Notes under the pieces: model-generated
What the model saw: the letters and a program-made list of their open reading frames with translations, nothing else
Told to the model about the DNA's origin: nothing
Database searches by the model: none
In this document: in pieces, positions 35,332 through 44,036 of the stretch
How the letters are laid out: the number at the start of each line of letters is the position of its first letter
Position numbering within the stretch: position 1 is the stretch's first letter
Made by a program: the position numbers and the translations under genes
From: Candidatus Margulisiibacteriota bacterium
GTDB taxonomy: Bacteria; Margulisbacteria; WOR-1; JAKLHX01; JBAZKV01
Length of the DNA stretch: 64,000 nucleotides
NCBI GenBank assembly: GCA_041650635.1
Contig: JBAZKV010000002.1
Location: forward strand, 47,844-111,843
Direction of reading: 5' to 3'

Positions 35332-35475
35332 ATACTTCCCCTCCCCTCCTGAATTTTTGACATGGACCCGTGTTGAGAGTATATAACACAAGGCTTTGGA
35401 CTGCAATGCTGAGGGACCCTGAGCGATCCTGAGCAACGAAAGTAGTGAGGAGTCGAAGGGGAGTCGAAATGTGCG

Positions 35476-35531
35476 CCTCAACAATAATTCTAAAACTATC
35501 GGTCTGATCTCTCTGATTATACCTAATGCCA
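35476..35531. repeat. inverted repeat A (left copy), 56 bp perfect, ~95 bp imperfect (35476-35563)
   Basis: Reverse complement is identical to 39761-39816. The imperfect extension shares the terminal gaaatattgggcg. Confidence 0.9.
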
Positions 35532-35682
35532 TACATGGCTGCAAGAAGCGAAATATTGGGCGGCTTGGTCGCAAGAAATAATGTTCGGGCTTTGCTCCTC
35601 CCACACCCTCCGCAAAGCCCTATTGCTTTTGATGATGGCGGGGAGAAATCAGACCTTAATAAATACCTAAAATCGATATCAG

Positions 35683-36888
35683 TTATCTGAAGATTTTTCT
35701 TATAACATCCTTAATTTCTTTGAAAGACATATCATATTTCAGGCTTAAAGATAGTCCCTTATTAATCACATGCACAAATGACTCCTTTGAATATATAAAT
35801 TCACCGGCTCTTAAAGATTCCTCTATGGTTTCTGCTTTTGCCAAAAGACATATCAATTGGTAATCCTTATCAACATATTGGTAATTTCCATTCTTGTGCG
35901 CTTTATTTGAATGTTGGCTTGGCGTTAGCTTTATTAAATTCTCTGTATAATGGGCCAATTCCGGAAATTTATTTTTTGGAAATATGTGATGGACCTGAGT
36001 CGCCTGGCCATTTCCCCAAGTATCATGTATTTCGCTATCCAAATATTTCGCTTTAATAATATTAACTGCTTTTTGTGTTAGATAATGATCATAACCTGTG
36101 TTTTGAGATACTAAGATATCTTCCGACTCCTGTCTTGATATCTTCTTTGATTCCTGTCTTGAAATTCCCTTTGCTTTCTTTACATCCCGCCAGTTGATCC
36201 GGTTATACATTAAATCGCTATAATGAAAAGGATGTTTTGACGCTTTACCTGCTTCACTTCCAGGCAAACCATTTTCAACTGCATAAATATTGAATATTTT
36301 AGGGAATATTCTTTTTGGTTCAAAGTCTTTCTTAATGGAGGTGTTTCCTTTGATAAATCTTTCAAACCTGTTTTTAATTCTTATATATTCGGCCGCATAA
36401 TCATCACCAACATCACAAATTGTTTTATAATTTTCAAAATACGCCATTAGCCCGCTGTCTCTTAACACCTTTTCTATATAATCGCACAAAAACACATATG
36501 CGTTTCTATCTTTAAATGCTATATATTGTAGAATCTCTGGACTAACAATTTTAAAGTAATTCTTTTGCCCCCTCCTCTTGCAAGAAAGAACACCTGCATA
36601 GGACAACGCTTTCAATGGCTGTTGAATAAATTTGTCGTACTCATGTTTTGCAGCTGGGTTTTTTACCGATGGCTTGTTAAAGACAGCCTTAACGTTCTCA
36701 TTAAAATATTGTGAGTCCCAAATATCCTGAACAGTAAATTCCTTATTTATATCCGACCCCACAACATTTATCGCGCAATCCGCAATAATCGAGAGGACGT
36801 CAGGAGTGACTTTCTGATCCATAAAACGAGCATCATGTGTCTTTCTTATATCAAGGTCATTAATATTTAGATATGATCTGATGTCCAT
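35683..36888 (-). CDS. putative restriction endonuclease (HNH-like C-terminal motif), partner of fused methyltransferase
   Basis: 401 aa, AT-rich and atypical for the window. Immediately downstream of the MTase and co-oriented with it (MTase stop 36890, R start 36888). The C-terminus ...QVHHIFPKNKFPELAHYTENLIKLTPSQHSNKAH is compatible with an HNH (H-N-H) nuclease core. Confidence 0.45.
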   Translation of the reverse strand: MDIRSYLNINDLDIRKTHDARFMDQKVTPDVLSIIADCAINVVGSDINKEFTVQDIWDSQYFNENVKAVFNKPSVKNPAAKHEYDKFIQQPLKALSYAGVLSCKRRGQKNYFKIVSPEILQYIAFKDRNAYVFLCDYIEKVLRDSGLMAYFENYKTICDVGDDYAAEYIRIKNRFERFIKGNTSIKKDFEPKRIFPKIFNIYAVENGLPGSEAGKASKHPFHYSDLMYNRINWRDVKKAKGISRQESKKISRQESEDILVSQNTGYDHYLTQKAVNIIKAKYLDSEIHDTWGNGQATQVHHIFPKNKFPELAHYTENLIKLTPSQHSNKAHKNGNYQYVDKDYQLICLLAKAETIEESLRAGEFIYSKESFVHVINKGLSLSLKYDMSFKEIKDVIRKIFR

Positions 36889-36889
36889 A

Positions 36890-39403
36890 TCACACTTCTT
36901 TCATTATTCCAAAAAAGTGGACAGAATTACTGTCAATATTTAGCGAGCGTGTCCCATAATTTCTAGCTATCGAATAATATTGTTCAAATTCTTCTGAATT
37001 ATAATATTCCAAATCCTTTAATGTTACAGGACGGCTTCCATTTTTGGGGGTTAGTATAGCAACGGACCCGTCAGATATTGAATTTTTTGGCATAAAACAA
37101 GCCCTAGGGTAATATGTTAAATTCGGGACGAGAATTGCATCTTTTCGGTTTATGTATTCATGCACTTTCAAAAATGAAGCATCATCTATATAAGTATCAT
37201 AGTTATTGATGCTTAATACTTTATTGCTGCCTATATTCCTTGACTTCAATACTCTAATTTTGCCTTTATTTGAAGTAATCTTCTTTGTAATTTGCCTGTC
37301 ACGAAATGCCTTAAAAATCCCCAGATGCATTTTGTTTGACACACTGTCAAAGTATTCATTTCTGTATATCACCCAATACGGATATCTATCTGATGTTATA
37401 TACTGCTGATTTTGATAGTTCACGGATTCATTCACATATGATTCAATCTTGGTTTTTCCATTATCTTTTTTTTGTCTTACCCTATTGATAATCATGCTTA
37501 CGGTTTCGATCTTTACCCCTTTAAATGCCTCTTCACCATAATCAGTAATTTTGGCTATTGATTTAGAGGCTATTATATTCCGTGTAACATCATACTCAGG
37601 TGAATTTATAAGGCTTTTTGGAACAATTAAAGCGACCACATTACCTATATCTAAAGATTTTTCCATGAAAAAAGAAAACAAATTATTCGATTTTCTATTC
37701 TTGGCACTGCTCTTATATTCCGCTAGCAACTCTTTATTGTTTGATATCTTTTTGAACGGAGGATTCCCTATTATGACATCGTATGAATTATCAAAGGAGT
37801 GTTTGAGATAGTCCGCGTGGATAAAGTTTATACGTATATTTGAAGGAACATTTAGCGCCTTAAGTAAATATCTAAGCACATCCAGAGCCTCTTTTTCCAC
37901 ATCAATCACATCAATAACAACTTCAGGGATACTCTTATATTTTTCAATCAATATTGGCAAAAAGTTGCCCGCACCAACGGATGGTTCAAGAATTCTTATC
38001 TTCTGGTACTTTTCAGCAGCAGGCAAGTCATTTATCATCGTAAAACATATGTCTTGTCTTGTATAATAAGCTGCATTTTCCAATCTTTTTGAATTTGACA
38101 ATTCTACAATCTTCGATAAAGCAACAAAGCCCAACCGCTCAGGATTATTCTTCACAAACATTTTTAGCTTATTAATATTATGGAGATCATACTCGCTAAT
38201 TATTTTGCTTATGTTTTTGTCGTTGATTGGCGGAAACAAAGTAGTTTTCTTAATGTTTTTTGCAATTTGATGAAAAATAATTGTTGGAACTGCTTCACCG
38301 ATTGATTGGCGAATGTTCATCTCTTCTTTTCTTAATATTTCCCTTTTCTCATTAATTGATAGTTTATTCAAGAGTTTTTCGTCAGCATCAAGCCACCTAA
38401 AACTGTCAGGAATAGACATCATTATCATTAATTCTCTAATGCTGAAGACCCTATTGTCCTTTGGATGAATTGTATTTTGGCTTGCCAGAATATCATTTCT
38501 TGTATGGACACATGGGGCAGGCTTGTCCCAATAGCACCTGCTATATTTATCTCCATTTTTATTGGCATTACACACAATAACTCCGCCTATTTTTTTGTGT
38601 GGGATATTATTCTTGTTTGTATTATTAAAAGCAGACTCTCCCTCCTTAATATCTTTAATCCAATTCAACATGTTTTGATTATAGGAACGAAACCCGTGAA
38701 AGATATCATTTGGAGATATATCTCCCATTGCTTTTAACTCCGGCAAATGACCTATTGCCTTTCGCAGAGTACTTTCTTTTTGTTGTTTTGGGAATATGTC
38801 ATAGGGAGAAATATCAAAGATATCTTTTCTTGAGCCTATAACAATAGTCCTTGTTCTGCTTGAGGGGCTACCATAATCTTTAAAATTTACGATCTTAAAC
38901 AATATATGATATCTCCCGCCAAGGTTATTCTCAATCGCATCTCTGATTTTTTTTGATTTTCCGTCAAGATCAATGCATTCCGTTGTCAAAAATGATCGAA
39001 CATTCTCAAACACAAAAAATCTTGGGTTTAGTTCTTTGGTTATTTTTATCGACTCGATAACTAGAGAATTCCTGCATTTCTCATTTTTCTTTTTATGATT
39101 AGCTACAGACATGCCTTGACAAGGAGGTGTTGCAAGAATAACATCGAGCTCTTTTAAATCGTATTTATTCTTATATAAATTGTATTCATCATAAACCTTG
39201 GATTTTGTAATATGATTGGTAAGGTCACCACAGATATATCCTGAATCAATATTGCATTTATGATTTCTTCTCTGGATGTTTAAGCGTTTCTCTATTATCT
39301 CTACGGTTGCTATGCAGTTGAATCCCTCAATCTTAAACCCATAACATCCGATGCCAGCCCCGCTGAATAAACTTATATATGTTAATTTCTTATTTTTCAT
39401 CAT
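36890..39403 (-). CDS. fused DNA methyltransferase: N-terminal C5-cytosine MTase domain plus C-terminal N6-adenine (gamma-class, NPPF) MTase domain
   Basis: N-terminal half has motif I LFSGAGIGCYGF, motif IV ATPPCQGMS (catalytic Cys) and motif VI FVFENV. C-terminal half has an AdoMet motif EPSVGAGNFL followed by IGNPPFKKI (motif IV of amino-MTases). Confidence 0.75.
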   Translation of the reverse strand: MMKNKKLTYISLFSGAGIGCYGFKIEGFNCIATVEIIEKRLNIQRRNHKCNIDSGYICGDLTNHITKSKVYDEYNLYKNKYDLKELDVILATPPCQGMSVANHKKKNEKCRNSLVIESIKITKELNPRFFVFENVRSFLTTECIDLDGKSKKIRDAIENNLGGRYHILFKIVNFKDYGSPSSRTRTIVIGSRKDIFDISPYDIFPKQQKESTLRKAIGHLPELKAMGDISPNDIFHGFRSYNQNMLNWIKDIKEGESAFNNTNKNNIPHKKIGGVIVCNANKNGDKYSRCYWDKPAPCVHTRNDILASQNTIHPKDNRVFSIRELMIMMSIPDSFRWLDADEKLLNKLSINEKREILRKEEMNIRQSIGEAVPTIIFHQIAKNIKKTTLFPPINDKNISKIISEYDLHNINKLKMFVKNNPERLGFVALSKIVELSNSKRLENAAYYTRQDICFTMINDLPAAEKYQKIRILEPSVGAGNFLPILIEKYKSIPEVVIDVIDVEKEALDVLRYLLKALNVPSNIRINFIHADYLKHSFDNSYDVIIGNPPFKKISNNKELLAEYKSSAKNRKSNNLFSFFMEKSLDIGNVVALIVPKSLINSPEYDVTRNIIASKSIAKITDYGEEAFKGVKIETVSMIINRVRQKKDNGKTKIESYVNESVNYQNQQYITSDRYPYWVIYRNEYFDSVSNKMHLGIFKAFRDRQITKKITSNKGKIRVLKSRNIGSNKVLSINNYDTYIDDASFLKVHEYINRKDAILVPNLTYYPRACFMPKNSISDGSVAILTPKNGSRPVTLKDLEYYNSEEFEQYYSIARNYGTRSLNIDSNSVHFFGIMKEV

Positions 39404-39411
39404 ATTTCCTA

Positions 39412-39702
39412 TTAAAAAACAAAAAACCTACGCATTTTCTGCGAGGTTTTACTTATTTTCATGTGGAGGTTTCCCCCTCGGAACTCACCACGTATTTGCA
39501 CATATTTATATAATACTTTTTGATAAGTGTCAATGTCTTTATTTGATTGCTCTACTTGAATGCGGCTCTTACCATTATTGATATCATTATGAATTATTGC
39601 AAGCCCATCTGCAAGATACCAAATATTCAATTTCATTAATTTAGAAAAATCTCGATATCGGTATTTATTGCTTGGCGGGCGCACATTAGAGTGGGCGGTC
39701 AT
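39412..39702 (-). CDS. hypothetical small protein upstream of the MTase
   Basis: 96-aa ORF on the same strand as the restriction-modification genes, with no recognisable motif; it may or may not be real. Confidence 0.25.
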   Translation of the reverse strand: MTAHSNVRPPSNKYRYRDFSKLMKLNIWYLADGLAIIHNDINNGKSRIQVEQSNKDIDTYQKVLYKYVQIRGEFRGGNLHMKISKTSQKMRRFFVF

Positions 39703-39760
39703 AAGGAAGCGCCCGCCATATAACGAAACCGCCCAATATTTCTTTAATATGGGCCGTACT

Positions 39761-39816
39761 TGGCATTAGGTATAATCAGAGAGATCAGACCGATAGTTTT
39801 AGAATTATTGTTGAGG
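39761..39816. repeat. inverted repeat A' (right copy)
   Basis: Exact reverse complement of 35476-35531. Confidence 0.9.
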
Positions 39817-39945
39817 CGCAGTTGATTATTGTTGCGAACTAATGTTCCGCAAGGTTTTTCTTCAGCAGTTTTTAACTTCCCTTTTTCATTTTTAAAAGCA
39901 CTATCAAGGCGGCTTGGGGCTGGGTGGCGGCAGCCCCAAGCCGCA
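39815..39945. repeat. inverted repeat B' (left copy); continues imperfectly to ~40064
   Basis: Reverse complement of 43706-43840 (119 nt perfect plus 1-mismatch extension); contains a 12-bp-stem GC hairpin (ggcggcttgggg...ccccaagccgcc). Confidence 0.9.
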
Positions 39946-39959
39946 GAAAGATGCTCTTC

Positions 39960-40064
39960 CTAGCACAATTCTTTTTTCTTATCGCCATTTAAGAAGGCGG
40001 GCTCGTAATTGGCGCTGTCCAACAGTGCTACTTCTATTGCCTCTTTAGAATAAATTAAAAGATG
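39960..40064 (-). pseudogene. inverted, diverged partial copy of the serine-recombinase gene 3' end
   Basis: Minus-strand translation ...HLLIYSKEAIEVALLDSANYEPAFLNGDKKKELC* parallels the recombinase segment ...KALIYSKEAIEVSLLYSANDSPAFENGSKKKELS... Confidence 0.5.
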
Positions 40065-40269
40065 TGCCTTTTTGAGCTGAAATATATTGTCCTCTCCCTG
40101 TTTTCCCAGTTTATCATTTCCCCGCTTTTCGCTGTCAAGTTGGGACCGATCTGATCGGTCCCAACTGCTCCAGTCAGCTTCGACTCGCCTGCGCGGCAAT
40201 GAGACACATAGCTCCGGCTCGCTCATCCTCCTTCCGCCCCTACGGGTGACAGCGGCGGGGAAATGATCC

Positions 40270-40827
40270 TTGATTCTCAAGGAGGTGTCGTATATGTCTA
40301 TTCACCGTTTGGCAGGGGTTGTGGGGTCCCGTTCTCTTCCGGTTCGTTTTGCTCCGCTCGTTGATCAGGTTGTGTCTTTGCTTCTGTCTCGCGGGTTTGA
40401 TGTGGCTTCGGGCGGCGCCGTGGGCGCTGATCAGTTTGCTTTGTCTGCTCTCCTTGGTTGCGGCGCTTCATCTCGCGGCGTTATTCATTCAGCCTGGTCT
40501 TCTATTGCGGGTTTCCCCTCCCAGGTCCGCGCTGATGTGGTTCGGTTCATTGCGGCCGGGGGTCGCGTGGTCTGGGGCTCTGCTTCTGCCGGTTCTCCCC
40601 GCTCTGTTGCCGTTTCTGCTCTTCTTGGCCGCAATAGGCGTTTGGTTTCCGCATCCTCTGTCATTGTTGCCTTTCTTCACGGGTCCTCGCGCGGCTCTCT
40701 TTACACAGTTCGTCAGGCTGTTTCCCGGGGCGTTCCTGTCATCGTCTTTCTTTGCGGCTCAGGTGCTTATATCCCATTTGATCTTTCCGCCTATTGCCAC
40801 ATCTTTAATTATGCTTCAGGAATTTAA
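40270..40827 (+). CDS. DprA/Smf-like Rossmann-fold (SLOG-type) protein, compositionally foreign
   Basis: SGGAVGADQFALSALLG (cf. DprA GGAxGxDxxAHxxAL), VVWGS and TVRQAVSRGVPVIVF regions. The coding strand is almost devoid of A, and the protein has no Lys or Glu after residue 5. Confidence 0.45.
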   Translation: MILKEVSYMSIHRLAGVVGSRSLPVRFAPLVDQVVSLLLSRGFDVASGGAVGADQFALSALLGCGASSRGVIHSAWSSIAGFPSQVRADVVRFIAAGGRVVWGSASAGSPRSVAVSALLGRNRRLVSASSVIVAFLHGSSRGSLYTVRQAVSRGVPVIVFLCGSGAYIPFDLSAYCHIFNYASGI

Positions 40828-40867
40828 CTGTGTTGACTTTTACCTGCAACTTTTGTACAATAAAGCC

Positions 40868-41203
40868 ATGTTTGGCAATAGGATCAGAGAACTTAGGAAT
40901 AAAGAAGATCTTACGCAAAGAGAATTTGCCAAGAAGATTGGGATCGATTTTACATACTTAAGCAAAATCGAGAACGGAAAAATGGATCCTCCTTCAGAAG
41001 CAACAATAATGAAGATGGCTGAGGTCTTGAAGGTGAATTCTGATGAATTATTGACTCTTGCAAAGAAATTTCCTAAAGATTTGAATGATATCTTGCATAA
41101 GAACCCGCGAACGATCGAACTTCTTCGTGCGATTCAGTCAAAAAGGATAACTGACGACGAAATCGATAAATTATTCGATAGGATTAAACACGAAAAACGA
41201 TGA
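40868..41203 (+). CDS. XRE-family helix-turn-helix transcriptional regulator
   Basis: MFGNRIRELRNKEDLTQREFAKKIGIDFTYLSKIENGK is a classic Cro/C1-type HTH. The 5' 550 nt of long ORF 40319..41203 is an alternate-frame artefact over the dprA-like gene. Confidence 0.7.
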   Translation: MFGNRIRELRNKEDLTQREFAKKIGIDFTYLSKIENGKMDPPSEATIMKMAEVLKVNSDELLTLAKKFPKDLNDILHKNPRTIELLRAIQSKRITDDEIDKLFDRIKHEKR

Positions 41204-41925
41204 AATATATCTCATACGATAAAATCGAAACTTTGACCGAGCAAAGACTTTGCGAATATGAAAGTAAATTCGGTCAGATAGTTTCGCCTCCGATTCCCAT
41301 CGACAAAATAATTGAAAGATTATTCAGCCTGCGTATTCTCTGGGAAAATATTCACGAAGAAGATGGGGAGGTGATCCTCGGTGGTCTTCGTCCGAACGAG
41401 AAGCAGATTGTTCTGAATGATTCGAGAATGCCTCTTTTTAATAAATATGAAGGATTAGAGCCTTTTACAAAGGGCCATGAGTTGGGGCATTGGGACTTGC
41501 TCGAGGAAAAAGATTTGATTGGCCACCAGATGTTCAACTTTTTGACAAAAAGCAGCTTTGTTTTGAGGAGTTCATCTGATAAAGATGCCGAAAAAGTCAG
41601 AGTGCTAATTGCAAATCTTTGGAAAGGACCTGATTTCTACAAAGTAATAAAATCTATTGAAGGCAAAAAAGATGATGCAATTACAAAAAGAATTATTGAC
41701 AGATATGCAAGTACCCTTTTGATGCCAAAACATCTGATAAAAAAAGTTTGCGCAACTCTTGATATTTTGAGCTGGAGCGATCTATATAAGCTACGTAAAA
41801 TCTTTAATGTGACAATTTCTGCCCTTACCGTGAGGCTTCAACAGCTGAATATGATATACATTGATAACAAGAAAATCTATAAGTCAAAGGAGGATGCAAT
41901 CGGTCAATTAGCCCTAATAAGATAG
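41200..41925 (+). CDS. ImmA/IrrE-family zinc metallopeptidase (COG2856-like)
   Basis: HELGHWDL (HExxH) about 90 aa from the N-terminus. The gene overlaps the XRE stop (ATGA), the typical XRE-ImmA pair organisation. Confidence 0.55.
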   Translation: MKYISYDKIETLTEQRLCEYESKFGQIVSPPIPIDKIIERLFSLRILWENIHEEDGEVILGGLRPNEKQIVLNDSRMPLFNKYEGLEPFTKGHELGHWDLLEEKDLIGHQMFNFLTKSSFVLRSSSDKDAEKVRVLIANLWKGPDFYKVIKSIEGKKDDAITKRIIDRYASTLLMPKHLIKKVCATLDILSWSDLYKLRKIFNVTISALTVRLQQLNMIYIDNKKIYKSKEDAIGQLALIR

Positions 41926-42022
41926 GATTCGAGCATCGCCCTATTAGGGCATTTTTTATAAGGTCGATGTTGCAGTTGAATATCAACGCAACAAATAAGG
42001 GCGATAGATAATTACGAAAGGG

Positions 42023-42304
42023 GTGATTGACGTGGCTACACAGTCGGAAATAATTGCGGCTATCGAGCAGCGAGTAACTACTTCCAAGACAGTACAGTAT
42101 TCCATTTGGACTATAGGGATAACAGCTGATCCAAAACAACGAAGAGATCAACATGAATCTGATGGAAAAAACACAGCCCACTGGATGCATTGGAAAGCTG
42201 ATTCAGAAACGATAGCAAGGAATGTTGAAAAATACTTCCTAAGTAAAGGCATGAAAGGTGACGTAGGCGGAGGAATTTATCCAACATACGTTTATATTTT
42301 CTAG
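42023..42304 (+). CDS. hypothetical small protein
   Basis: 93-aa ORF between immA-like and recombinase genes, with no recognisable motifs. Confidence 0.25.
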   Translation: MIDVATQSEIIAAIEQRVTTSKTVQYSIWTIGITADPKQRRDQHESDGKNTAHWMHWKADSETIARNVEKYFLSKGMKGDVGGGIYPTYVYIF

Positions 42305-42378
42305 CCAGTTTTGTATCCCAAGGGTATTGCGTTAAATGCTCTACCCTTGGGGGCATATAAAGAAAGGAGAACAAGCGT

Positions 42379-43896
42379 ATGAAAGCCGCTATCTATACGA
42401 GGGTTTCTACCGATGGACAGGCCGAGGTCGAGTTTAATTCGTGCGAGACACAGGAGATCAAGATCAGGTCGTTCATATCAAGCCAGAATGATCTTGAGGT
42501 CCATAAGGTCTATTCCGACCAAGGATATACAGGAGCCAATACAGACCGGCCTGCCCTGCAGGAGATGATAGGCGACATACAGAATGGGAAGATCAATCTT
42601 GTTATCGCGTATAAGATCGACCGCTTAACAAGATCTCCTAAAGATTTTTATCAGCTTATTGAGATCTTTGAGCAATACAACGTCAGTTTTATATCAGTCA
42701 CGGAAAGATTTGACACCTCTACCCCATCCGGAAGGCTTTTGAGGAATATAATGCTCACTTTTGCCCAATTTGAGCGTGAGCTCATCAGCGAAAGAATAAA
42801 AGACAAAATGTTTGAACGCGCTAAAAAGGGCTTTTGGTGCGCCGGAGTAACGCCTTTCGGCTATAAGAGAGAAAACAAAAGGCTGGTAATTGAACCAAGG
42901 GAAGCGGATATTATTAGGACCATATTTGAAACCTTTGTTTCAACAGGGGTCTTGGCTGAAGTATATGAGCTGTTAAAAAAGAAAAAGATGTTTGGCAGGA
43001 ATGGACTGCCCATATTGAAAACCTGCATTTCTTACATCTTAAGGTCCACAGTTTATGTGGGAAAGGTCAGGCATAACGGGAATTTTTATAAAGGTTTGCA
43101 TGAGCCGCTTATTTCAGAAGAGCTCTTTCAAGAAGCTCAATTATTATTTAAGCCACTTAATAAAAAAAGCAAAGTCTTTAACTATACGCTATTTCCGGGA
43201 TTGGTCAGGTGTAAAGAATGCGGCTCGGTTATGACATCAGTTTTTACGAACAAATTCAGCAACGGCAAGCGGGTAAGGTATTTTTATTATCGCTGCACAT
43301 CAATAGTAAAAAGAGACGGATCGTTCTGCGGCATCAAACAGGTAAGCTCCGACAGATTAGACTCATATATCGTTGATAATCTCGATAAAATAGCAAAAAA
43401 TCAGCAGTACCTGGATAGTTTGATTTTTATGCTCAATAATCAGGCCAAGGGTAGGCAAATTGGGGTCGAACCAAACGGGGACGGCTCTTTTTATACCTCC
43501 GAAAGAGTGCGCGAGATCATAGGAAAGATCGTTAAAGCCTCAAAACTGCAAGGAAATGTTGAAAAGAGGGCTGTCATAAAAAGGCACATCAAGGCATTAA
43601 TTTATTCAAAAGAGGCAATAGAAGTATCCCTGTTGTACAGCGCAAATGACTCGCCCGCATTCGAAAATGGCTCTAAGAAAAAAGAATTGAGCACGGAAGA
43701 CCATCATTCGGCGGCTTGGGTCTGCCGCCACCCAGCCCCAAGCCGCCTTGATAGTGCTTTTAAAAATGAAAAAGGGAAGTTAAAAACTGCTGAAGAAAAA
43801 CCTTGCGGAACATTAGTTCGCAACAATAATCAACTGCGCCATGTTGGATTCGAACCAACGGCCCGCTGCTTAAGAGGCAGCTGCTCTACCAACTGA
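42379..43896 (+). CDS. large serine recombinase (resolvase/invertase N-domain plus recombinase domain plus zinc ribbon)
   Basis: MKAAIYTRVSTDGQ (catalytic Ser region), a ~150-aa resolvase domain, a recombinase domain and CKECGSVM...YYRC zinc ribbon. The final ~65 codons read through inverted repeat B, a GC hairpin and tRNA-Lys (..VGFEPT..), so the true stop probably lies earlier. Confidence 0.8.
   Translation: MKAAIYTRVSTDGQAEVEFNSCETQEIKIRSFISSQNDLEVHKVYSDQGYTGANTDRPALQEMIGDIQNGKINLVIAYKIDRLTRSPKDFYQLIEIFEQYNVSFISVTERFDTSTPSGRLLRNIMLTFAQFERELISERIKDKMFERAKKGFWCAGVTPFGYKRENKRLVIEPREADIIRTIFETFVSTGVLAEVYELLKKKKMFGRNGLPILKTCISYILRSTVYVGKVRHNGNFYKGLHEPLISEELFQEAQLLFKPLNKKSKVFNYTLFPGLVRCKECGSVMTSVFTNKFSNGKRVRYFYYRCTSIVKRDGSFCGIKQVSSDRLDSYIVDNLDKIAKNQQYLDSLIFMLNNQAKGRQIGVEPNGDGSFYTSERVREIIGKIVKASKLQGNVEKRAVIKRHIKALIYSKEAIEVSLLYSANDSPAFENGSKKKELSTEDHHSAAWVCRHPAPSRLDSAFKNEKGKLKTAEEKPCGTLVRNNNQLRHVGFEPTARCLRGSCSTN
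43706..43840. repeat. inverted repeat B (right copy); similarity continues inward to ~43590
   Basis: 43722-43840 is perfectly reverse-complementary to 39815-39933. The outer end includes the last 6 nt of tRNA-Lys. Confidence 0.9.
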
Positions 43897-43907
43897 GCTA
43901 ATGGCGC
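43835..43907 (-). tRNA. tRNA-Lys (anticodon CTT)
   Basis: Reverse complement GCGCCATTAGCTCAGTTGGTAGAGCAGCTGCCTCTTAAGCAGCGGGCCGTTGGTTCGAATCCAACATGGCGCA; the anticodon loop CTCTTAA gives CTT. Confidence 0.8.
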
Positions 43908-44036
43908 AAAACTAATAAACCTTCACTGCCTAGCACTGAGCGACCCCGAGCCCTGTCGAGGGGGAGTCGAAGTGCTAATGGCGCAAATAAGAAAGCTTTC
44001 AAATAAAATTATAACATGACACAACGGGGCAAATGG

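Follow-up and report, generated by a model that had tools for sequence, protein, structure and literature searches.

Two abutting genes on the reverse strand of the window (the whole 64,000-nucleotide stretch of DNA analysed here, from a Margulisiibacteriota metagenome-assembled genome) raise the question of whether they form a restriction-modification (R-M) pair and, if so, to which family the pair belongs and which site it would attack. An initial annotation, made from the sequence, had proposed a Type II(S)-like pair composed of a C5-cytosine plus N6-adenine fusion methyltransferase (MTase) and an HNH-type endonuclease candidate, and had suggested that its specificity is likely new. Both open reading frames lie where that annotation placed them (Table 1). 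Our reading is that they very probably constitute a Type IIS R-M system, a member of the Hin4II/HpyAV family borne on an island that was acquired horizontally, with enzymatic activity that we infer.

Table 1. Coordinates of the R-M genes and of the island features around them
Feature	Position	Strand	Basis or detail
Fused DNA methyltransferase, 837 aa	36890..39403	(-)	ORF list, Pfam, PADLOC
Type IIS-type restriction endonuclease (REase) candidate, 401 aa	35683..36888	(-)	ORF list, PADLOC, homology
M-R junction	36888..36892	(-)	MTase stop TGA 36890-36892, single base 36889, REase ATG 36886-36888
24-nt tandem duplication within REase gene	36125..36172	(-)	direct repeat D9; encodes KGISRQES followed by KKISRQES
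Left arm of 98-nt inverted repeat around R-M cassette (arm P')	35472..35569	(+)	repeat search
Right arm of 98-nt inverted repeat, 86% complementary	39723..39820	(-)	repeat search
Large serine recombinase gene	42379..43896	(+)	Pfam Resolvase, Recombinase and Zn_ribbon_recom domains
tRNA-Lys(ctt)	43834-43908

The fused methyltransferase and the candidate endonuclease

The methyltransferase is laid out as a C5-cytosine MTase (aa ~1-390), a helical connector (~391-465) and a gamma-class N6-adenine MTase with a C-terminal target-recognition region (~466-837). Pfam places PF00145 at aa 8-386 (7e-39) and PF07669, the Eco57I-type N6A MTase family, at aa 526-625 (1e-13). The m5C domain contains FSGAGIG (13-19), PPCQGMS (93-99, with the catalytic Cys95), ENV (133-135), R183/R185 and GEAVP (369-373), and the m6A domain contains EPSVGAGNF (473-481) and NPPF (547-550), so that every motif of the two sets noted in the initial annotation is present. 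Across the aligned homologues motifs I, IV, VI, VIII and X, together with EPxxGxGxF and NPPF, are invariant or almost so. Judged by these motifs, the protein is a natural fusion of m5C and gamma-class m6A domains, and neither catalytic set is damaged. A dead C-terminal half, which had been raised as a possible objection, was rejected: its EPSVGAGNF and NPPF are intact, its AdoMet and catalytic motifs are conserved and PF07669 matches it. We note that the start chosen by NCBI is the second ATG, which gives a protein of 836 aa.

The downstream 401-aa protein is predicted to consist of a helical/winged-helix recognition region (aa 1-~238), a disordered linker (239-262, where the pLDDT of the AF2 model falls below 50) and a C-terminal beta-beta-alpha-Me (HNH) core. 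The H-H...N...H pattern reported earlier for its C-terminus corresponds to H300/H301/N317/H326 and is kept in 123 of 126 full-length cluster representatives; among 60 homologues these four residues, along with E316 and H331, are invariant save for one N317T. In the AF2 model (pLDDT 84) a strand at 298-301, a strand at 318-321 and a helix at 323-330 form the predicted beta-beta-alpha arrangement around the motif. Independent profile libraries give the HNH fold weak statistical support: the Pfam HNH profile PF01844 reaches E=0.053, under its gathering score (38 of the 60 family members are likewise sub-threshold), the PADLOC profile of the HNH protein PtuB reaches 3.4e-4, and hhalign of the REase family profile against the colicin E9 (ColE9) DNase, at a non-significant E=0.11, nonetheless puts the catalytic residues in register. 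No PDB chain was matched by sequence even at E<=10, with either the REase or a profile of 60 sequences as query, and Foldseek of the AF2 model against the PDB had no match under E=0.29; what it did return were weak winged-helix similarities in the N-terminal region. We regard the absent Foldseek match as neutral on the HNH assignment, given that the nuclease core spans just some 35 residues. The sequence evidence supports the downstream protein as an HNH-type restriction endonuclease candidate.

The two genes are separated by a single nucleotide (...GTG TGA t ATG GAC), as the initial annotation had it; a gap of this size also separates the two genes of the closest relative (L083) and those of Ureaplasma diversum (L086). 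The fused MTase is one open reading frame directly upstream of an REase homologue in 65 of 80 genome loci, most of them with an M-R gap of 1-14 nt, and 8 further loci are cut by contig ends. Abutting on the same strand, M and R are probably co-transcribed and translationally coupled. A sigma-70 promoter scan of the cassette returned 18 sites against 19.9 in shuffles, and we therefore claim no promoter for it.

Family assignment and the surrounding island

The PADLOC Type II profiles match the pair with E values (1e-236 for the MTase, 1.4e-98 for the REase) that place an R-M assignment far beyond chance. PDLC03277 covers the whole methyltransferase (1-835/823), PDLC03370 matches its aa 5-385 and PDLC03382 its aa 400-835, while the REase_II profile PDLC03488 matches the 401-aa protein. 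These best-matching, REBASE-derived profiles have the protein lengths of HpyAV and Hin4II; for instance, the three MTase profiles, of 823, 387 and 445 positions, agree exactly in length with M.HpyAV, M1.Hin4II and M2.Hin4II as published. Over 388 aa the REase shares 39% identity (E=6e-83) with a 418-aa U. diversum protein, P0463, of a length like that of Hin4II and named "restriction endonuclease Hin4II" in NCBI/UniRef, a name that is itself an annotation by similarity; the link was made through a homology search seeded with P0290. No non-nuclease family matches the 401-aa protein, which answers the other objection that had been foreseen. The MTase that adjoins P0463 is 48% identical to the window's over its full length, and 46% in the target-recognition (TRD) regions. 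The catalytic spacing of the 401-aa protein, 1/16/9, equals that of H294-H295-N311-H320 in HpyAV.

Clustering at 50% identity divides this large family into 559 clusters, and 354 species genomes contain relatives. The window's system belongs to a Bacteroidota-dominated clade whose members are 54-60% identical to it, and about 35-39% identical to the Hin4II-like clade; Chan et al. reported 33% identity to HpyAV for a Bacteroides representative of the group most like the window's proteins. A name look-up of ten 50%-cluster representatives of Hin4II/HpyAV-like length returned unnamed metagenome proteins in every case. On its sequence, the R-M pair is an intact and ordinary member of a characterised and very widespread bacterial family.

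The pair sits in a low-GC, 8.4-kb serine-recombinase island at a tRNA-Lys gene, bracketed by inverted repeats. The left arm starts with a TGCGCC core, adjoins flank box B (35452-35471) and looks like the attL of the island. The right arm is contiguous with an inverted copy of the 3' end of the recombinase gene (39815-40058), and the two together make up an attP-like P-core-P' junction in inverted orientation. The 3' end of the recombinase gene itself lies within a 244-nt repeat arm (43597-43840) that abuts the tRNA-Lys; as listed, its reading frame runs into the tRNA, and its true C-terminus is therefore uncertain. When JGI metagenome contigs were scanned for exact matches to the P' arm of the island, no copy was found.

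The significance of the locus lies mainly in annotation. The 401-aa protein has over 2,000 relatives, and like it most of them are "hypothetical protein" entries at NCBI, although the family has been characterised biochemically; transferring the names of Hin4II and HpyAV would improve many of these entries. The locus also shows that the family reaches candidate phyla (Margulisiibacteriota and Patescibacteria) and travels on small integrative islands. Beyond this the R-M pair matters little, introducing no new mechanism and opening no long-standing question.

Recognition site, cleavage and competing explanations

In the mechanism we propose, protection of an asymmetric site on both strands would fall to the single 837-aa protein: the C5-cytosine domain at its N-terminus would methylate a cytosine on one strand (CCTTC in characterised members), and the gamma-class N6-adenine domain at its C-terminus an adenine on the opposite strand (GAAGG in those members). 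The 401-aa protein would bind the same site, when unmethylated, through its N-terminal helical/winged-helix region and make its cut a few bases away on one side, using one HNH (beta-beta-alpha-metal) centre of the ColE9 type, in which, by analogy with HpyAV, H301 would act as general base, H300 and H326 as metal ligands and N317 as the structural asparagine.

Characterised members of the family place m5C on CCTTC and m6A on GAAGG, and cleave at 6/5 (PMC2816704; PMC3936762). Members at 31-48% REase and 42-57% MTase identity, from Helicobacter pylori, Haemophilus influenzae and Neisseria meningitidis, all act on CCTTC/GAAGG (PMC2816704 and PMC3936762, among other sources), the basis being cleavage in H. 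pylori and H. influenzae, the methylome also in H. pylori, and GAAGG methylation in N. meningitidis. GAAGG is moreover among the most widespread 6mA motifs of gut bacteria, in line with the breadth of the family. By analogy, the window's system probably recognises CCTTC or a one-base variant of it, and its REase may be expected to cut at 6/5 as do HpyAV and Hin4II. Two earlier suggestions do not survive this comparison: the domain order and sizes, thought to differ from those of characterised examples, are exactly those of HpyAV/Hin4II, and because these proteins are homologous over their full length a same or near-identical site is expected rather than a new one.

The part of the window that belongs to the host shows no significant depletion of CCTTC/GAAGG (178 observed, 193 expected, z=-1.5), which, for a Type IIS system that looks recently acquired, we take as neutral and not contrary. 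The supplements of Blow et al. 2016 hold no GAAGG entry for any species in our locus list, and for CCTTC they list a single entry, Lactobacillus plantarum AG30 M1/M2.LplAG30I.

Alternatively, this system, and possibly all of the Bacteroidota-dominated clade to which it belongs, might share the family and mechanism and yet have a site other than CCTTC (a one-base variant, for instance), or a cut distance altered by the 8-aa linker duplication. The modest identities to the Hin4II-named REase and in the MTase TRDs would allow the former, and the duplication, unique among the 60 aligned homologues, would allow the latter; if true, either would amount to a novel specificity or reach for a Type IIS enzyme, useful as a reagent. 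We consider this explanation unlikely, although it is the best of the alternatives, given that members as distant as those cited above all act on CCTTC/GAAGG, that GAAGG is as common in gut bacteria as the breadth of the family would suggest, and that the duplication falls within a predicted disordered segment between domains.

It is more doubtful still that, with both genes intact, the restriction half is inactive or silent and the locus serves as a solitary double methyltransferase. R genes of this family are known to decay, HpyGORF49P having acquired a stop codon and the N. meningitidis gene an inserted transposase (PMC2816704, among other sources), the 8-aa duplication might perturb the enzyme, and a promoter could not be assigned with confidence. 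Against this, the REase reading frame is full length with every catalytic residue in place, the tight M-R junction is conserved, and the low-GC island looks recently acquired, so that there would have been little time for decay.

Finally, many HNH nucleases are modification-dependent or come from mobile elements, and the 401-aa protein is unclassified by Pfam, but we reject as highly improbable the notion that it is an HNH nuclease of the methylation-dependent (Type IV-like) or homing type with no more than a neighbour's relation to the methyltransferase, in view of its full-length homology to a family in which HpyAV and Hin4II act on unmethylated CCTTC, their cutting being prevented by the cognate fusion MTase, the strict M-R synteny in at least 65 of the 80 loci, and the failure of Pfam and Foldseek to detect an SRA, EVE or other modified-base reader domain in it.

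Comparison with known systems

The closest characterised counterpart of this presumed Type IIS system is HpyAV of H. pylori 26695 (hp0053/hp0054), which recognises CCTTC, cuts at 6/5 and has M upstream of R; M.HpyAV is an 823-aa protein with C5 followed by N6A, and R.HpyAV is a 419-aa protein with a C-terminal ColE9-like HNH (PMC2816704; PMC3936762) whose H294, H295, N311 and H320 were verified by mutagenesis (PMC2816704). Like HpyAV, the window's pair has a single fusion MTase of similar size with the C5 domain first and the gamma-class N6A domain second, a same-strand M directly upstream of R, and an REase of ~400-420 aa with a predicted C-terminal HNH whose four catalytic residues have the same spacing. 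Unlike that of HpyAV, its REase is 18 aa shorter and has the 8-aa linker duplication, and the pair lies in a different phylum and in a low-GC island.

The Hin4II-annotated locus of U. diversum resembles the window's in having a fused MTase, of 836 aa, and in its M-R gap, whereas Hin4II of H. influenzae RFL4 has two separate MTase genes (M1, 387 aa; M2, 445 aa). A split MTase is also found in an Acinetobacter plasmid relative (L001). The colicin E9 DNase has the same HH...N...H register around a core that is predicted to be beta-beta-alpha in our REase as well, but the H-to-N spacing of the latter is one residue longer and its core is embedded in a sequence-specific enzyme. Alw26I, Esp3I and Eco31I (GTCTC-core) share with the window's pair the Type IIS logic of an asymmetric site whose two strands are protected by m6A and m5C respectively, and Alw26I and Esp3I have fusion MTases too. 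These enzymes nevertheless probably belong to a different protein family, the window's pair matching the Hin4II/HpyAV profiles instead, and according to the initial annotation their domain order and sizes are not those of the window's pair.

A fused methyltransferase and a candidate HNH nuclease

Two abutting minus-strand ORFs lie exactly where the initial annotation placed them, separated by 1 nt at a junction that reads GTG-TGA-t-ATG-GAC in the window sequence. They encode a fused DNA methyltransferase (MTase) and a candidate restriction endonuclease (REase), the latter labelled 'hypothetical protein' in the NCBI record of a 130-kb contig from a Candidatus Margulisiibacteriota MAG, with which the window shares 100% identity. 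At its start (39401-39403) the MTase ORF reads ATGATG, and the NCBI record of the protein (P0121) counts 836 aa from the second ATG; the ORF list and the initial annotation have 837 aa.

Coordinates of the restriction-modification (R-M) genes and island features in the window
Feature	Position	Strand	Details
MTase	36890..39403	-	837 aa, ORF list
REase candidate	35683..36888	-	401 aa, ORF list
Island region	35452-43987		holds the 8.4-kb low-GC island, at 3' end of tRNA-Lys(ctt)
tRNA-Lys(ctt)	43834-43908		
Large serine recombinase ORF	42379-43896	+	island
DprA-domain ORF	40270-40827		185 aa, DNA_processg_A (2.4e-11), island
XRE-type HTH gene and 241-aa ORF	~40870-41925		HTH_3 (4e-16); ORF with HELGH; island

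Pfam places a C5-cytosine methylase domain (PF00145) at MTase residues 8-386 (7e-39) and an Eco57I-type N6-adenine methylase domain (PF07669) at residues 526-625 (1e-13), with generic AdoMet-fold matches at residues ~465-565. Across 12 homologues, with identity down to 48%, the m5C half retains FSGAGIG (motif I), PPCQGMS (motif IV, Cys95), ENV (VI), R183/R185 (VIII) and GEAVP (X), and the m6A half EPSVGAGNF (motif I) and NPPF (motif IV), all invariant or nearly so. Domains and motifs alike confirm the m5C and gamma-class amino-MTase sets originally read from this one protein, and a dead C-terminal MTase domain is ruled out by the conservation of the m6A diagnostic residues.

The C-terminal H-H...N...H pattern first noticed in the 401-aa protein is likewise borne out by conservation: H300, H301, E316, N317, H326 and H331 are retained among 60 homologues, with one N317T as the sole exception, and the pattern occurs in 123 of 126 full-length family representatives. 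A PADLOC Type II REase profile matches the protein at E=1.4e-98. An AF2 model based on the 60-sequence alignment (mean pLDDT 84, pTM 0.77) predicts an N-terminal region, mostly helical, that includes two beta-hairpins (101-114, 209-220), a disordered linker (residues 239-262) and a C-terminal part that places H300-H301 on strand 298-301, N317 directly before strand 318-321, and H326 in helix 323-330; the arrangement so predicted is that of a beta-beta-alpha-metal site. Independent statistical support for an HNH domain is weak. Pfam HNH reaches E=0.05 and is sub-threshold in 38 of the 60 members, PADLOC PtuB scores 3e-4, and hhalign of the family profile against ColE9 (a sequence 100% identical to PDB 1bxi_B) gives a statistically weak E=0.11 with the catalytic residues all in register. 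Foldseek with the whole chain against the PDB returned no significant match; its weak hits were winged-helix structures aligned with the N-terminal region. The kind of system recognised initially, an R-M pair with an m5C + m6A fusion MTase and an HNH-type nuclease candidate, was correct and its features are real.

An imperfect 24-nt tandem duplication at 36125-36172 (REase aa 239-254; copies 79% identical) encodes KGISRQES followed by KKISRQES. It falls in the linker, predicted to be disordered, that joins the recognition and HNH regions, and is absent from all 59 other homologues aligned. REase linker length could in principle alter Type IIS cut distance.

A putative mobile island at tRNA-Lys

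The R-M cassette has a G+C content of 34% versus ~50% in its surroundings. A core, (C)TGCGCC, is found at the left edge of the island (35472), between a unique flank box (35452-35471) and the left arm P'; at the right-hand edge (43834-43840, the final bases of the tRNA), flanked by the recombinase-side arm P and by the tRNA body; and mid-island (~39820), where P and P' join inverted in an attP-like P-core-P'. Inverted repeats therefore flank both modules: one of 98 nt (86% complementary) encloses the R-M cassette, and one of 244 nt (92% complementary) the recombinase module. In sequence, the outer junctions resemble the attL and attR of an island of the serine-recombinase type, one whose insertion restores the 3' end of the tRNA. 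The internal site, in inverted orientation, may have been left by a second element; alternatively, the att-like sites may allow segments to invert. Arm P' had no match in a scan of JGI metagenome contigs.

The flank box, GTCGARGGGGAGTCGAARTG, has a second copy (90%) at 43955-43987, about 47 nt past the 5' end of tRNA-Lys, followed directly by 13-14 nt identical to the tRNA-Lys 5' end region; together these may mark a past integration or excision event at tRNA-Lys. As mechanically listed, the recombinase ORF runs on into the oppositely oriented tRNA-Lys gene, and an inverted copy of the ORF's last ~250 nt lies at 39815-40058; the true C-terminus of the recombinase is therefore uncertain.

The likely true start of the HTH gene lies near MFGNRIRELRNK, and the gene overlaps the 241-aa ORF by 4 nt. 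The two resemble, in sequence, an XRE + ImmA/IrrE-like metallopeptidase pair; Pfam gave no match for the 241-aa ORF. Downstream of the closest R-M relative (L083) lies a faint Peptidase_M78 gene. The segment carrying the DprA-domain ORF has a host-like G+C of 51%, unlike the remainder of the island. DprA in H. pylori reportedly alleviates restriction of incoming DNA, and a link between this ORF and its R-M neighbours is entirely speculative.

Distribution and gene linkage

At 90% identity there are >2,000 REase clusters and >5,000 MTase clusters, and a fused MTase of ~835-855 aa is the rule among relatives. These were located in 354 species-representative genomes, chiefly of Bacteroidota (Flavobacterium, Prevotella, Chryseobacterium and others), with further hosts in Patescibacteria, Ignavibacteria, Planctomycetota and one archaeal MAG; plasmids of Acinetobacter and Psychrobacter carry more distant members, one of which has split MTases. 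Among the best 80 loci from these genomes, 65 have the REase immediately preceded, in the same orientation, by a single fused MTase ORF without interruption, the gap being mostly 1-14 nt, and eight more end at a contig edge and are compatible with that order. The MTase domains are in separate ORFs or frames at two loci, the m5C part stands alone at three, and one locus each has the MTase on the opposite strand or lacks upstream sequence. At some Bacteroidota loci (L011, L017, L037, L038; also L034, L040, L053) the two genes are ~550 nt or ~150-190 nt apart versus the usual 1-14 nt, which suggests an inserted small gene or element.

Kinship with HpyAV and Hin4II

HpyAV of H. pylori 26695 and its H. 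influenzae isoschizomer Hin4II recognise CCTTC, cut at 6/5, and have the MTase gene upstream of the nuclease gene in the same direction (Chan et al. 2010, PMC2816704). Searched exhaustively, 1.84 billion cluster representatives yielded a REase family of 559 clusters at E<=1e-3 (207 at E<=1e-30). One homologue, P0290 (422 aa, HH at 296-297), is 39% identical to the window REase (E=1e-67) and was the seed of the search that reached its close relative P0463 (418 aa), named 'restriction endonuclease Hin4II [Ureaplasma diversum]' in NCBI and UniRef, itself an annotation by similarity. The window REase aligns with P0463 across both the N-terminal and HNH regions (39% identity over 388 residues, E=6e-83). 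In U. diversum an 836-aa MTase precedes the REase with the same 1-nt gap; translated with code 4, it is 48% identical to the window MTase over its full length, ranging from 36% in the inter-domain connector to 71% in m5C motifs IX-X, with both target-recognition regions at 46%. This full-length homology therefore places both window genes, as judged from sequence, in the Hin4II/HpyAV family.

We infer the enzymatic activity, recognition site and cut distance of the window pair from sequence features and homology. By analogy with HpyAV, the REase N-terminal region would read an asymmetric site and the flexible linker would set one HNH centre a short way (a few base pairs) downstream, with H301 as the putative general base, H300 and H326 as metal ligands and N317 orienting the base. 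The fusion MTase would hemimethylate each strand by different chemistry and so protect the host.

With regard to the site, the H. pylori and H. influenzae REases are 48% identical, and both act on CCTTC/GAAGG (PMC2816704). NEIS0295 (M.Nme15193I) of N. meningitidis cc11 places m6A on GAAGG and is classed as Type IIS; identity between its FAM18 counterpart and HpyAV is 42% for the MTase and 31% for the REase. Since the characterised or methylome-assigned members, though mutually distant, all act on CCTTC/GAAGG, we would expect CCTTC or a close variant here by analogy, and a changed recognition site or reach seems to us unlikely. GAAGG belongs to the four 6mA motifs most widely spread among human-gut MAGs, where it is not tied to these genes (PMC12118455), a prevalence that fits the abundance of the family. 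Counts of CCTTC/GAAGG in the window, 178 against an expected 193 (z=-1.5), are uninformative as to avoidance.

The initial annotation held that domain order and sizes differ from those of characterised examples, overlooking the HpyAV/Hin4II family, which matches in every architectural respect. A PADLOC Type II MTase profile of 823 positions spans the entire fusion (E=1e-236) and two more, of 387 and 445 positions, each match one half; these are the published lengths of M.HpyAV, M1.Hin4II and M2.Hin4II (PMC2816704). M.HpyAV, shown by SMRT sequencing to place m5C in CCTTC and m6A in GAAGG, is classed 'Gamma, 5mC' (Krebes et al. 2014, PMC3936762), the class initially deduced for the window MTase. 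In R.HpyAV (419 aa), mutagenesis confirmed a ColE9-like HNH site made up of H294, H295, N311 and H320 (PMC2816704), and its catalytic spacing of 1, 16 and 9 is identical to that of H300, H301, N317 and H326. The window pair is a further member of an already characterised family.
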